NCBI RefSeq assembly: GCF_045037415.1
Contig: NZ_CP173438.1
Source: Escherichia coli
Lineage (GTDB): Bacteria > Pseudomonadota > Gammaproteobacteria > Enterobacterales > Enterobacteriaceae
Length of the DNA stretch: 64,000 nt
Strand: one strand, 5' to 3'
The stretch's first letter is position 1, and the number at the start of each line of letters is the position of its first letter. Both the position numbers and the translations under genes were made by a program. Under the pieces are notes generated by a model. The model had not been told where the DNA came from, did no database searches, and worked only from the letters and a program-made list of their open reading frames with translations. Positions 24,669 through 31,804 of the stretch are shown piece by piece.

Positions 24669-26237
24669 TTAGCGTGCCGGCTGAGTAGTCGTGGAAGACT
24701 GCTCAAAGTGATAGCGACCGGTTTTCAGGCTGCTTGGGCCGAGGCGTGCAAACTTGAACATTAAGAACAATTCTGCCACCAGGAACAGGGTATACAGGCC
24801 GCAAATCAGCACCATTGAGAAGATGAGATCGCCTGCGGTCAGTGACGAGTTCGCCACAGCTGTCGGCAGCACTTCACCGATAGCCCACGGTTGGCGGCCA
24901 TATTCAGCCACGAACCAGCCCGCTTCTACAGCAATCCACGGCAGCGGAATACCGTACAGCGCGGCGCGCAGCAGCCATTTTTTCTCGCCAATGCGGTTGC
25001 GGATGACACTCCAGAAAGAGAGCGCAATGATTGCCAGCAGCAGGAAGCCACACGCCACCATGATACGGAACGCGAAGTACAGCGGCGCTACACGCGGAAT
25101 GGAGTCTTTGGTTGCCTGTTGAATCTGAGCTTCAGTCGCATCAGCCACGTTTGGCGTATAGCGTTTCAGCAGCAGACCGTAACCGAGATCTTTCTTCATG
25201 CTATTGAACTGGTCACGAACGGCCTGGTCAGTAGAACCAGAACGCAGTTGTTCGAGCAGAGAGTACGCCTTCATCCCGTTACGAATGCGTTCTTCATGCT
25301 GCACCATCAGTTCTTTCAGACCGATAACTGGAGTATCCACGGAACGCGTTGCAATGATGCCCAGCGCGTAAGGGATCTGGATCGCAAATTTGTTCGTCTC
25401 CTCTTCCTGATCAGGAATGCCGAACAGAGTAAAGGCAGCAGGTGCAGGTTGCGTTTCCCACTCGGCTTCAATAGCAGCCAGTTTGGTTTTCTGCACGTCG
25501 CCCATTTCGTAGCCGGATTCATCACCCAGAACAATAACAGACAGAACGGCAGCCATACCGAAGCTGGCAGCGATAGCAAAGGAGCGTTTAGCGAAGGCGA
25601 AGTCACGACCTTTCAGCATATACCATGCGCTGATACCGAGGATGAACATCGCGCCAGTCACATAACCAGAAGCTACGGTGTGAACGAATTTCACCTGAGC
25701 AACCGGGTTAAGCACCAGCTCGGAGAAGCTCACCATCTCCATACGCATAGTTTCAAAGTTGAAATCGGACGCGATTGGGTTTTGCATCCAGCCGTTTGCA
25801 ACCAGAATCCACAGTGCGGACAGGTTTGAACCGAGCGCCACCAGCCAGGTGACACACATATGCTGAACTTTACCCAGACGATCCCAACCGAAGAAGAACA
25901 GACCTACAAAGGTGGATTCGAGGAAGAAGGCCATCAGACCTTCGATTGCCAGCGGCGCACCGAAGATATCCCCTACATAGTGGGAATAGTAAGACCAGTT
26001 AGTCCCGAACTGGAACTCCATGGTCAGACCGGTAGCCACACCCAGAGCAAAGTTGATACCAAACAACTTGCCCCAGAACTTGGTCATATCTTTATAAATC
26101 TGTTTGCCGGAAAGGACGTAGACCGTTTCCATAATGGCCAGCAGGAACGCCATACCGAGCGTCAGTGGCACAAAAAGGAAGTGGTACATCGCGGTCAAGG
26201 CAAACTGTAAGCGCGACAGTTCGACTATATCTAACAT
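24669..26237 (-). CDS. cydA: cytochrome bd-I oxidase subunit I
   Basis: 522 aa starting [19 protein letters not shown]. Confidence 0.97.
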
Positions 26238-26522
26238 CATGACTCCTTGCTCATCGCATGAAGACTCCGAGAGTGAACCCCGTTAGAAAGGGTCACACGC
26301 ATGCCCCAATACAAAATTATTTGCTCGCCTCTATCGTTGCCATTTCATCAAAAGAAGAAAAGACAATGATAAAAAAGTTACAAATATGTTAATGAATAAA
26401 CCAAATTTATCCCGTAATTATATTACGCTGCAAAATCCTTACAATAAACAGGTTTTTATTGAGCAAATTTGCATTTTTCGACAGTGATCAATTTATAGCG
26501 AAATTGTCACGATCCCACCAAT

Positions 26523-26536
26523 TTGATCTACAACAA
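26523..26536. promoter_or_regulatory. FNR-like half-palindrome in cydA upstream region
   Basis: TTGATCTACAACAA, partial match to TTGAT-N4-ATCAA, about 290 bp upstream of the cydA start. Confidence 0.4.
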
Positions 26537-26574
26537 TTTATCGTGTTTTGCAGATTTTTTTCAAGAATTAAAAA

Positions 26575-26588
26575 TTGATTTATATCAA
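26575..26588. promoter_or_regulatory. FNR binding site in cydA upstream region
   Basis: TTGATTTATATCAA, perfect TTGAT-N4-ATCAA, about 340 bp upstream of the cydA start. Confidence 0.6.
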
Positions 26589-27744
26589 AATCAATCAGAT
26601 ATGTTAACCGCTCGTAAATCATGAATCATTGATGGGTTTGTTGTTAATAAATTGTAGCAAAATAACACAGTAAAACTACCCACATGGAAATATATAGATA
26701 AAAAACCAGTATTTTATTTAACAGAACCGCCTTATCGACTTTTTATAATACTAGTTAGTTAGAGTAGCTACTTTGTTGCCATTTTACATAACATATTTTT
26801 ATCAACGTTAATTGATTGTTGTCTTTATGAGCAACGTACTGTAAATCCGTCACTTATTGTTTCATTGGTAATAATCACAAGAAGAAATAGATACCTTAGG
26901 TATAGTCAGATGGAACAAGGATTTTCAAAATAAATTTATATGGTATTAATATTTCCCGATCTGTATTCAATGATTCGCTCAAAGATTGAAAATCAAGAGA
27001 AATTGTTATAGCAGTGATACGAGACAACAAAACGGAATGATTGCCAGCCGTTAGAAAACACCGGACACTCTCGTGTAAAAAGCTACCCTGTCTATGGATA
27101 TAGCGATATCGACTCATCAAGCGTGGACTGAATGATATTCAGCTCCATATGGGCGGCAACCTGGAGGATAAACATGATTTCGCCGTTGGAATCAAGGTTG
27201 TTCTGCAATATCTACCAGACTGCTTCAATTTATCTGTTTTGGAAGTGCAATAATCTTAATTTAACTATTTGAAGATGATGATATTGTCAGATGCCAGAAA
27301 TTTAGTAATCTGGAGAACCGTGTCTATGATCACTAAATATTAAAGTAATAGTCGTCAGTAACACATCGAGTGATATAACGTATTGACACCTAATCATATA
27401 AAAACAGATCGTAATTAAGCAGCATAAGAATATGTCTTATTATCATTAAAATACATTCTATTTCCATCATCCTTAAGATAATAAAACAGTGAGTGATGGA
27501 TAATTTCACCCCAAAAAAAAGCAAGCATATAAAATTAAAAAACATGACTCCACTTTCATTTTTATGAAATGGCATCGTGAAGAGGCGCCAGCCAATTATA
27601 AAGATCTTGCTCCTCAAAAAATGAAACAACTCAGCCTGAGATAATATTTTTGACCGAAGTTAACATTAAAAATGGTTAATAGTTTGCGCCTCTCACACAG
27701 GTCCAGGCAACTGCGTAACAGGCAAATCAAATTTTCGTAAACAG

Positions 27745-27770
27745 TGGGCATCATCAGATGCCCACAAAAT
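27745..27770 (-). terminator. hairpin downstream of the TPR-protein gene
   Basis: perfect 9-bp stem GTGGGCATC-tgat-GATGCCCAC just 3' of the stop; weak T tract. Confidence 0.45.
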
Positions 27771-27779
27771 ACAGCTGAT

Positions 27780-28973
27780 TTACATTTTCGTCTTTACACG
27801 TGCAATAGCTTCTTCATAAGAAGGCTTATTTTTTTCCGTATACGCCAGTTGATAATGCTGCAATGCTTCAGCATTCTGGCCCGAGGTTTCATAAATTTTG
27901 GCAATGTTATAATAGGAGTTGGCGCGCGTTGTCGCCGCATTTACCCCACTCGCTAACGAGATCGCTTTACGATTTGCCCAAATTGCTTCCGCTATGTTGC
28001 CATTTTTCTGATACGCCAGACCCAGGTTACTAAATGCCTGTCCGTAATTGCCGTCTAATTCTGTTGCCTGTTGGAAGAGTTGAATGGCTTGCTCAAGTTG
28101 ACCGGTTTTATAAACAGCTTCACCTTCGCGATTATATTTTCTTGCCAGTTGAGTATCTCCACTGTTTTGCATCGCAGGCGAAGCCGGAGCTGAAGAGTCC
28201 GTCGCAGGCATTATCACAGTGGCTAAATCCCTGACGTCTAATGTGGTGCCGTTAAAATTGGCGCTGGTAACAGAGTTGATATCTTCAAACTCGCCGTTTG
28301 GATTGAGTTTAAACACGGTCCAGATGTTCCCTCGTTTTCCTGCAGGGACACTATAACTACGTACCAGGGAGCTCCCTACATAAACAAACACTTTTGCCTT
28401 ACTGGCAGAGAGATAATTACTGTTGGGCAGCCCTTTATTGCTATAGTCCTGCACGGCATAGATGTAACTTTCACCAAAATGCTTTTTGCTGATAGTGACA
28501 GTTTCTGGTCCATAGCTATCCGTATCATCAACATCCAGATTGGCATCAGTTCCCTCTTTACTATCAAAATAGATATGTCCGCCAGGGAAGATCAAATGCG
28601 AATCAAGATCAAAAGGCTTTTCGCCCCAGCTCAAAACTACACGCATGCCATCCAGATTCGTCATCACCGGACTGATAGCATAAGTCATGCCAGCGCACGG
28701 ACATTTGACCACCAGATTGGAATACCCCTCTTTTTTGACGATTAATAGAGCATCTTTATTATCAGCAAATGAAGTCCCCAAACTAATGCTGCCCGAAGTA
28801 TTTGTGATACCAGAAACAGATTGTGCACCATTGCGTTGCAGCGTCACCGATGCCCCTTCAATGCGTTTATCTTTCACTGTCGCACTTAAAATATCAATGC
28901 TTACATCGGCGGCATAAGCACCTGCATTCATGCCCAACAGCGCGAGAGCAACTGGCAAAACAATTTTCTTCAT
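27780..28973 (-). CDS. secreted protein with C-terminal TPR repeats (accessory; not in K-12 as I recall)
   Basis: 397-aa ORF; Sec signal peptide MKKIVLPVALALLGMNAGAYA; C-terminal TPR-like repeats; AGGA RBS; visibly lower GC than flanking core genes. Confidence 0.75.
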   Translation of the reverse strand: MKKIVLPVALALLGMNAGAYAADVSIDILSATVKDKRIEGASVTLQRNGAQSVSGITNTSGSISLGTSFADNKDALLIVKKEGYSNLVVKCPCAGMTYAISPVMTNLDGMRVVLSWGEKPFDLDSHLIFPGGHIYFDSKEGTDANLDVDDTDSYGPETVTISKKHFGESYIYAVQDYSNKGLPNSNYLSASKAKVFVYVGSSLVRSYSVPAGKRGNIWTVFKLNPNGEFEDINSVTSANFNGTTLDVRDLATVIMPATDSSAPASPAMQNSGDTQLARKYNREGEAVYKTGQLEQAIQLFQQATELDGNYGQAFSNLGLAYQKNGNIAEAIWANRKAISLASGVNAATTRANSYYNIAKIYETSGQNAEALQHYQLAYTEKNKPSYEEAIARVKTKM

Positions 28974-29170: not shown

Positions 29171-31804
29171 TCAGACTATTCGGTAGCTAAATGTCCGCGA
29201 CTGTCCCGGTAAAAAGAGAGCTAATTCTTTTAAAACCTCATTTTTTTCTGTATTAAAGCGTTCATTCATCATGGTTTCTGTACACGTCATCACCTTCCTG
29301 CTAAACGCGACGGTCGCATCACAGCTTGTCAATTCAGCCGGATTAAACAGCCGCAATATTAATTCCTGTCTGTCTTCTGCTTTTTTTAGCGCGCTGATCA
29401 GACATCCCACTGGTGGCATTTTCAGCAAACTATAGCTTTCCGGCACATTGAATTTGGCTTTATTAAGCTTCATCGCATCCCACGGGATTTTGTTATAACA
29501 CTGAACTGGCGTCAGCCATGCGCGTGCCTGCTGGGCTACACCGGCAGTTACGGGAGTACCGATATAACTAAATAAACTCAGACGACAGGAAAATGATCCG
29601 CGTAATTGTGAATCGGACACAGGCATTTTAATTCCTGAAGGACGCCCTGGCCTTAAAAGTAAATCTTCTTTTCCCAGTAATCCCACACCACGCAACAACG
29701 TAATAGCAAAGGTTTTATTCTCTTCTCCAATGACTTCAAATTCACGTAATCCTTCGCTAAAAACGGCTATGCCGTTACGCCCTTCCTGTAAGACAGCATA
29801 GTTGAGCATATTCCATACCGGAACCGGCGCTTCTTTCCAGCCTTCTTGCTGCCAGACATTCATTGCGCAATCCTTCACTGGCCGCGTCAATGAACCAAAC
29901 TGCGTATCCGCAAGAACAACATCTGTGTTAAAAGGCGTGGGAATCAATACACGAATACGGTGATCATCGGCCTGGTTATCAAGATTAATATCCGCATCAA
30001 TGCGTCTGCTGTTATGGCTAAGAGTGATCACCGTCTCCACCCCTACCCTGCCAGAACATTGCTTTGCGCGACGCTCTGACAGATTACGCGGCACCGCTAT
30101 TTCATAGCGAATTATGGCCCTACTCTGCCAGGCTTCATGAATAATATCGTATTGCGGTTTCGCATTCGCTGAGGTAATGGCCCACTCTTCTTTTGCTGGC
30201 GAATAATCATATTCATCCCCATCATCGGAACCTTCTTCAATTTGAAACACCCGGTCATAGCGCACGCCACTATCTTTATCAACCAGACGAAGTGAACCAT
30301 CCTCATTGAGTGCAATTTGCCAGAAAGCATTTTCCAGTATTCCCTCTGTTTTACTTTTTGGCGTGACCACATTGCCAAGCTGATTCGCTTCTATATAGAG
30401 CGTGCGATACCCCATAGAAGGGACAATTTGGCTGATCTGAATATCAAACTCCATAAAGGGATCATAATTGCCGTAATGAACTATTTGCCGATCAATAAGG
30501 CCGGGATCGATCTCACGGGCATGTCGAATAAAATATGGCACAGGCTGACCGCGACCGTCTCGCAAATTAAACTGGCTACCGCGCAGTCGAACAGTTGTGT
30601 TGATAACTTCTTCACGCGGCCAGGGCATCAGGTTAAACAGGACGAGTTTGTCGGCGTCGCTCTGCGGCATGTTGTCTGCTATTTTGCGCATATAGAACCG
30701 AATTAGATTATCCGCCATGTCTTCTGCCAGTTCGAAGCGGGCGACAATCTCGCGATGAACTTTATCACTGCAGCAGCAGCCGATGCTGTCATGGGCGTGG
30801 TTTTTTAAAATTTCTTTCCACATCTTCTCCAGCAAGCCGTGGTGATAATCAAAACCTAAAGTCCAGGCCAGCGTTGCCAACGGTTCCAGCAGATTAACAA
30901 TCTTATTTTCAATGCGTGCGTGGGCAATTTTGATATCCATGCGCGTGGAACCGATGGTGCGATGCACGCGCATATATTTGCCATCGATGAATTCACCTTT
31001 CAGGATGGCCAGACTTTCACGCTGCGCTTCAATCTGCTCGAATACCTCTTCAAAGCGGCTCATCACAAACTTTCGTTGAGGATAAATTTCGCGCAGTTTC
31101 TCCATCACTTCGAAGATATTTTGCTGCAAGGGCATCTGGTCATGACCATTCGGCAATAAAATTTCTTTGGTTACTGACGCTTTTTCCAGCACGTCAAAAT
31201 AACTGTCGAGGCGTTTACGTAATCCATTTTCGTCCGCAGGTAAGTACTTACCGATGGCGTAGCCCAGCGGCAGCACCTGCGCCGTCACTTCGCTACCGTC
31301 ACTGCTTTGCCACAAAAACTCGGTTTTATCAGTACCGTGGCGCTCAGAACATCCGCGCCAGAACATGGTGCGGGTAATGCCAAATCCATTGTATATATGT
31401 GGCAGTTGCCCGGACATGCCAAAGGAATCCGGTAAATAACCTATTTTCATCGGCTCGCCAAACGCGAGGCAGTCACGCATTCCGTACATCAGATTACGGA
31501 CTATGGATTCAGCAGAAACAATCGTGGTATCGGTCTGGGTATACCAGGGACCGATAATTAATTTCCCGCCCTCGACCAACTTCTTCACACGATCTTTGTT
31601 CTCCGGTTTGACAGCGAAATAATCTTCGAGGATCGCCGTTTGCCCGTCGAGTACGTAATATTTGTATTCGTTGTCCTGTTCCAGTCTGCACAGGATCTCT
31701 TCCATATTATTGACCAGCAGAATGCGAGACTCTTCTGTGGTGAAATACCACTCCCGATCCCAGTGCATATGCGGGGTGATGTGAACGCGAGATACCGCTT
31801 TCAT
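29171..31804 (-). CDS. mngB: alpha-mannosidase (GH38)
   Basis: 877 aa; position downstream of mngA. Confidence 0.93.

Follow-up and report, generated by a model that had tools for sequence, protein, structure and literature searches.

The two FNR-type motifs found upstream of cydA in the 64-kb stretch of DNA analysed in this work (hereafter the window; from E. coli, not K-12) are very probably the FNR-1 and FNR-2 operators of promoter P1 of cydABX, the operon for the cytochrome bd-I oxidase. FNR repression of cydAB through two P1 sites has been known since the 1990s and is textbook regulation. It was confirmed by genome-wide ChIP-seq (PMC3688515) and carries little weight as a discovery.

Sequence and statistics of the FNR site pair

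The cydA gene of the window showed 98.6% nucleotide identity to K-12 cydA, and was preceded by an AT-rich spacer of 1539 bp (26241-27779, 33.7% GC) with 100% identity to strain SK1144 and many other strains. The RefSeq gene order of SK1144 on the minus strand was: ybgE, cydX, cydB, cydA, a gene encoding a TPR protein, and mngB.

A preliminary description of this DNA had reported a perfect TTGAT-N4-ATCAA motif, a weaker site and a separation of about 52 bp between them, at the positions listed in Table 1, and all three were borne out. The distal site, TTGATTTATATCAA, was the sole perfect match to TTGATNNNNATCAA (TTGAT-N4-ATCAA) in the window (10 of 10 consensus positions); 0.06 perfect palindromes were expected in the shuffled window, and at least one was found in 6 of 100 shuffles. 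The proximal site matched 9 of 10 positions, and was one of five matches with exactly one mismatch in the window. The site centres (26581.5 for the distal and 26529.5 for the proximal) were 52 bp apart, and lay 344.5 and 292.5 bp upstream of the cydA ATG, respectively. Both half-sites of both sites had the TTG start and CAA end that constitute the FNR-type T-A pair.

Sites were scored with a symmetric log-odds matrix built from 61 ChIP-seq-bound K-12 sites (PMC3688515, Table S6), with the two cydA sites excluded. The distal and proximal sites ranked first and second in the window (19.98 and 16.14 bits respectively; the next match scored 10.91), and both were above the training median of the 61 bound sites (15.07 bits). 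The AT-rich 1539-bp spacer was shuffled 2000 times with its dinucleotides preserved; 50 of the shuffled sequences had one or more sites of at least 16 bits, and only 1 of the 2000 had two. The pair was well past chance, even in AT-rich DNA. A third FNR-like match, TTGATCACTGTCGA (26478-26491), located in a very conserved block, was not accepted as an FNR site, with a score of only 4.1 bits.

Table 1. Features of the cydA locus in the window. Positions are those of the window; ArcA box starts are given with respect to the cydA ATG.
Feature	Coordinates	Strand	Remarks
cydA, cytochrome bd-I subunit I (regulated gene)	24669-26237	-	ORF 24669..26240; annotated ATG at 26237
cydA control region (promoters, both FNR sites, three ArcA boxes, 5' leader)	26238..26878	-	Upstream limit from BLAST homology
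Distal FNR site (FNR-1 equivalent), TTGATTTATATCAA	26575..26588	-	cydA sense TTGATATAAATCAA; perfect palindromic half-site pair
Proximal FNR site (FNR-2 equivalent), TTGATCTACAACAA	26523..26536	-	cydA sense TTGTTGTAGATCAA; one mismatch, in the left half
P1-like sigma-70 promoter, TTGAAA-N18-TAAATT	26564..26535	-	From promoter scan; -35 at 26564..26559, -10 at 26540..26535
ArcA box TTGATAAAAATATGTTAT	26788..26805	-	Sense, start -568, 17.3 bits; counterpart of K-12 cydA1 (-590, sense)
ArcA box TTGTTAATAAATTGTAGC	26641..26658	+	Antisense, start -421, 19.5 bits; counterpart of K-12 cydA2 (-418, antisense)
ArcA box AAGTTACAAATATGTTAA	26375..26392	+	Antisense, start -155, 20.3 bits; orthologue of K-12 cydA3 (-152)

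Correspondence with the mapped K-12 sites and promoter P1

In pairwise and six-way alignments, the distal and proximal sites fell in the same columns as K-12 TTGATATTTATCAA and TTGTTCTCGATCAA, respectively. These are located at 771110 and 771162 of NC_000913.3, that is, at 770333 and 770385 of U00096.2 after subtraction of 777 bp, an offset that agreed for both FNR sites and for a published ArcA box coordinate. Table S6 of Myers et al. 2013 (PMC3688515) has two cydA entries, 770333 and 770385, and marks both with "+" for location at an FNR ChIP-seq peak. Table 1 of the same work lists cydAB as directly FNR-repressed (peak at 770,404, site at -53.5 from the transcription start), citing Cotter 1997 and Govantes 2000 for this entry (PMC3688515). 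The spacing was 52 bp in both strains, with K-12 centres 341.5 and 289.5 bp from the ATG, and the distance to the ATG was 348 bp in K-12 and 351 bp in the window, a difference of 3 bp. On the basis of these alignments, the window sites can be regarded as positional orthologues of the K-12 cydA FNR sites. The agreement with the known two-site repression of cydAB near P1, also claimed in the preliminary description, was thus upheld by the mapped sites and the K-12 FNR ChIP-seq data: the mapped sites do not lie elsewhere relative to the cydA start.

With the K-12 distal centre (770339.5) at -53.5, the +1 of P1 is 770393; adding the 52-bp spacing to the published -53.5 puts the proximal centre (770391.5) at -1.5. 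By transfer from K-12, the window P1 would start at approximately 26528. The promoter scan detected a P1-like promoter between and overlapping the two FNR sites, in agreement with the published -53.5; the K-12 hexamers in the alignment were TTGGAA and TAAATT, i.e. an identical -10 and a nearly identical -35. The proximal site would extend from about -8 to +6, overlapping the end of the -10 hexamer and the predicted +1, and the distal site would lie just upstream of the -35.

The two alleles differed in the spacers inside the FNR sites (ATAA and GTAG in the window vs. ATTT and CTCG in K-12), in the bases directly downstream of the proximal site (GGTGGGATCGTGA in the window vs. GGCTGAAAGGCGG in K-12) and in the FNR scores (20.0 and 16.1 bits in the window vs. 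16.9 and 13.5 in K-12); both FNR and ArcA boxes scored higher in the window type than in K-12.

The operon has five promoters, of which P1-P4 are under the control of O2, ArcA and Fnr (PMC3037301, PMC3946193). The strongest sigma-70 consensus match of the spacer, TTGTAA-N16-TATAAT (10 of 12 positions; 26417-26444, minus strand), was about 90 bp downstream of the predicted P1, within a block near-invariant between haplotypes, and probably corresponds to P2, P3, P4 or P5, the downstream promoters of cydA.

ArcA boxes and extent of the control region

ArcA boxes were scored with a matrix from 112 boxes (Park et al. 2013, Table S3), excluding those of cydA. The three boxes of the window corresponded, in order and orientation, to ChIP or footprint sites of K-12. 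Box TTGATAAAAATATGTTAT was also present in the O157 and A42 alleles, and box AAGTTACAAATATGTTAA was within the block alignable to K-12.

Homology upstream of cydA ended at different points depending on the genomes compared: at -641, window position 26878, for O157-type alleles (BLAST), at -669 for E. albertii, and at -351, the outer edge of the distal FNR site (26588), for K-12, Citrobacter and Klebsiella. Homology to K-12 upstream of -351 was not demonstrated, with global and local alignment scores only about 2.2 standard deviations over shuffles; the ArcA boxes at matching positions in this segment could reflect saturated homology or convergence.

The control region (Table 1) was common to E. 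coli strains carrying different upstream genes (the TPR gene or a glm cluster), and the remainder of the spacer (26879-27779) was common only to strains carrying the TPR gene. The DNA from 26879 onward belongs to a strain-variable TPR-gene island, outside the conserved cydA control DNA. The preliminary description had taken the FNR pair as an anchor for the native part of the AT-rich tract. This stood in so far as the pair marks the P1 core, fixing P1 near the predicted 26528, and fell short in extent: the conserved control DNA reaches further, to about 26878 (-641), and includes the ArcA boxes. It is the combination of the FNR pair, the ArcA boxes and the limit of homology between strains that separates control DNA (26238-26878) from the island.

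The 5' leader was also conserved. The last 85 nt or so before the cydA ATG were identical in all six E. coli alleles aligned, and near-identical in Citrobacter and Klebsiella. The leader region (26238-26332) contained a hairpin (26296..26273, minus strand; GUGACCC / GGGGUUCAC), with apparently compensatory changes in Kluyvera, Kosakonia, Phytobacter and Cedecea, and a motif, GUCUUC(A/C)UGCGA(U/G)GAGCAAGGAGUCA, which was kept out to Proteus and Photorhabdus. No Rfam family matched 26150-27850 at an E-value of 1 or less, and the single-sequence minimum-free-energy fold of the leader was no better than shuffles (z = 0.79). A leader ORF with a stop codon overlapping the cydA ATG was discounted as an upstream ORF, since neither its ATG nor its frame was retained in Yersinia, Serratia or Proteus.

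Conservation of the FNR site pair and alternative readings

Six E. coli alleles were aligned: window, A42, O157:H7 Gim1-1, PapM-32-1, FXCREC043 and K-12. The ten half-site positions of the distal site (TTGAT and ATCAA) and the right half of the proximal site (GATCAA) were invariant in all six. In its left half, the proximal site had TTGTC in the O157-type alleles (three of the six) and TTGTT in the remaining three (window, A42 and K-12). Among the same alleles, divergence was 10-20% in the DNA flanking and separating the sites. A 76-bp block covering both FNR sites matched 2079 complete E. coli genomes (1096 identical) in its window-type version and 3179 genomes (3120 identical) in its K-12-type version, and 168 genomes matched neither in megablast searches.

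Outside E. coli, 120 cydA loci were collected from species-representative genomes of Enterobacterales, Orbales and Pasteurellales by means of a codon-degenerate pattern for the CydA N-terminus, a sampling independent of the FNR sites. Most Enterobacteriaceae had a near-perfect FNR site, with its centre some 340-350 bp before the cydA ATG. For the 63 Enterobacterales loci with a site of at least 16 bits between -450 and -200, all offsets from -150 to +150 bp were scored: +52 gave the top mean FNR score (-6.2, vs. an all-offset mean of -25.3, standard deviation 3.7), and 40% of these loci had at least 9 bits at exactly +52. The other 60% or so of the species with a strong distal site were below 9 bits at +52, some of them with a partner at +51 or +53 (+51 in Yersinia species, +53 in E. 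albertii). The partner had the form TTG(T/C)NNNNGATCAA, weak in its left half and invariant in its right half. The pair was conserved past neutral expectation, with half-sites invariant among haplotypes of 10-20% divergence and an offset of +52 that stood out. FNR control of cydAB had been predicted by comparative genomics in 10 of 10 gamma-proteobacteria (PMC1805755).

The conserved right half of the proximal site overlaps the promoter core, and part of its conservation could be driven by the promoter and not by FNR. A reading in which the distal site alone is a true FNR operator, the proximal one being a fortuitous GATCAA half-site kept as P1 core DNA, would fit the variation of the proximal left half (TTGTT, TTGTC, TTGCT, TTGCC) next to an invariant GATCAAATTGG beside the -10, as well as the many species with a strong distal site and less than 9 bits at +52. 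This reading is nevertheless improbable: the proximal site scored above the median of ChIP-bound FNR sites, its K-12 orthologue passes the PatSer threshold (14.05; PMC3688515), the K-12 ChIP-seq summit (770,404) is closer to the proximal centre (12 bp) than to the distal centre (64 bp), and the TTG of the left half was retained at +51 to +53 in genera whose flanks were no longer alignable.

There is next to no chance that both motifs are accidental matches in AT-rich, H-NS-type DNA with no regulatory role: the low GC content of the spacer and the number of FNR matches with up to two mismatches across the window (43 observed vs. 33.7 expected, not above shuffles) would allow for it, but two sites of 16 bits or more were found in only one of the composition-matched shuffles, and the sites are orthologous to ChIP-bound K-12 sites and conserved among haplotypes and genera. 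CRP is E. coli's other regulator of FNR's protein family, and a base pair that is T-A in FNR sites (TTGAT) and G-C in CRP sites (GTGA) discriminates between the two. Binding by CRP instead of FNR is an equally negligible prospect: the GA-N6-TC core is common to CRP and FNR sites, and a carbon input of Cra/CRP type has been discussed for cydAB (Ramseier 1996), but both sites are of the TTGAT/ATCAA type, not GTGA/TCAC, and their K-12 orthologues are FNR-occupied in vivo. The identification of the pair as the FNR-1 and FNR-2 operators of P1 is the reading followed below.

Divergent promoter haplotypes and variable upstream genes

The 480 bp upstream of cydA in the window were compared with the 5425 complete genomes having a match. 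Identity was at least 99% in 546 genomes, 95-99% in 18, 90-95% in 1655, 80-90% in 3064 and 60-80% in 142. The K-12 promoter was equally distant from the window type (80% identity), Citrobacter (about 80%) and K. oxytoca (79%), in contrast to the 98.6% identity between the cydA genes of K-12 and the window, and its alignment to the window type stopped at the distal FNR site, exactly on its outer side. The window-type promoter showed 84% identity over 670 bp to that of E. albertii. Judging from these identities, E. coli has two or more deeply divergent haplotypes of the cydA control region, among them the K-12 type and the window type. The upstream ArcA/H-NS module would have been replaced by non-alignable DNA, which has ArcA boxes in matching order and orientation. 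The haplotype pattern looks like the replacement of a regulatory region by recombination; "switched" intergenic regions and horizontal regulatory transfer have already been described in general (PMC5890482).

Further differences between haplotypes were observed directly downstream of the proximal FNR site (window 26505-26522), where K-12 has GGCTGAAAGGCGGTAATTT, resembling a Cra (FruR) half-site, and window-type alleles have GGTGGGATCGTGACAATTT. A possible Cra input may therefore be haplotype-specific. Cra and Fnr reportedly interact at cydAB (Ramseier 1996).

Gene content upstream of cydA was also variable. In the window, a TPR gene (27780..28973, minus strand), encoding a 397-aa product with TPR repeats as its only Pfam matches, was located between mngB and cydA. 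In A42, sucD was followed directly by the TPR gene; O157-type strains had the methylaspartate-mutase (glm) cluster and two hypothetical genes; and K-12 MG1655 had mngRAB, without the TPR gene and with an mngB-cydA spacer of 846 bp. The interval between sucD and cydA therefore constitutes a hotspot for variation in gene content. The mngB gene of the window (29171-31804) showed 87.9% nucleotide identity to K-12 mngB over the full 2634 bp without indels, far under the usual within-species level, and the divergent segment therefore reaches well past the cydA promoter. Two strains with an otherwise identical spacer, e.g. TUM11356, carried an IS1 about 900 bp upstream of cydA (approximately window 27130-27140). 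Relevance of IS1 to the FNR sites was rejected: its location, some 900-1600 bp upstream of cydA, was in the TPR-associated spacer, outside the conserved control region.

Discussion

The anatomy of the site pair agrees with a simple occlusion model, with a strong predicted operator at -53.5 and a weaker one over the -10 and +1. Without oxygen, FNR would keep its [4Fe-4S] cluster and dimerise; one dimer would bind the perfect distal site just upstream of the -35 hexamer, and a second dimer the weaker proximal site, over the -10 end and the transcription start. With both sites occupied, RNA polymerase would be blocked at P1 and transcription of cydAB lowered in full anaerobiosis. Phosphorylated ArcA (ArcA-P), bound to the upstream and downstream ArcA boxes, would raise expression by opposing H-NS. 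FNR repression in full anaerobiosis combined with ArcA-P activation would therefore make expression of the operon peak microaerobically. The 52-bp spacing, about five helical turns, would place both dimers on one face of the DNA; any importance of this helical phasing is presumed, and the conservation of a 51-53 bp spacing is compatible with it. FNR binding and repression in the window strain would be expected by extension from K-12, in which FNR occupancy in vivo and repression of cydAB have been reported (PMC3688515), together with partial anaerobic repression by FNR, activation by ArcA-P and a microaerobic peak (PMC3688515, PMC3998891), ArcA working mainly by opposing H-NS at cydAB (PMC3798270).

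Two other FNR-regulated genes offer a comparison. At yfiD (grcA), activation comes from the downstream FNR site, at about -40.5, and is damped by the upstream one, whereas both cydA sites are repressive and the weak one would cover the transcription start. The two promoters are alike in having two FNR sites about five helical turns apart (2714579 and 2714632 at yfiD, 53 bp; PMC3688515, Table S6), one of them perfect and the other with a TTGTT left half, as at cydA in the window. Like cydA, ndh is an aerobic respiratory gene with FNR as repressor and ArcA as co-regulator. The FNR sites of ndh lie upstream of the core promoter, whereas one of the cydA sites would overlap +1.

The operator logic of cydA (a pair of FNR sites separated by five helical turns, with three ArcA sites) is maintained despite near-saturating divergence of the surrounding promoter, and cleanly illustrates purifying selection acting on binding sites within a recombining regulatory region. 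What may be new is the surrounding promoter: it might be, though we consider this rather doubtful, that the sequence differences between haplotypes set different oxygen thresholds for the expression of cytochrome bd-I. If true, a core respiratory operon would show natural variation in its regulation, which recombination of the promoter region maintains.
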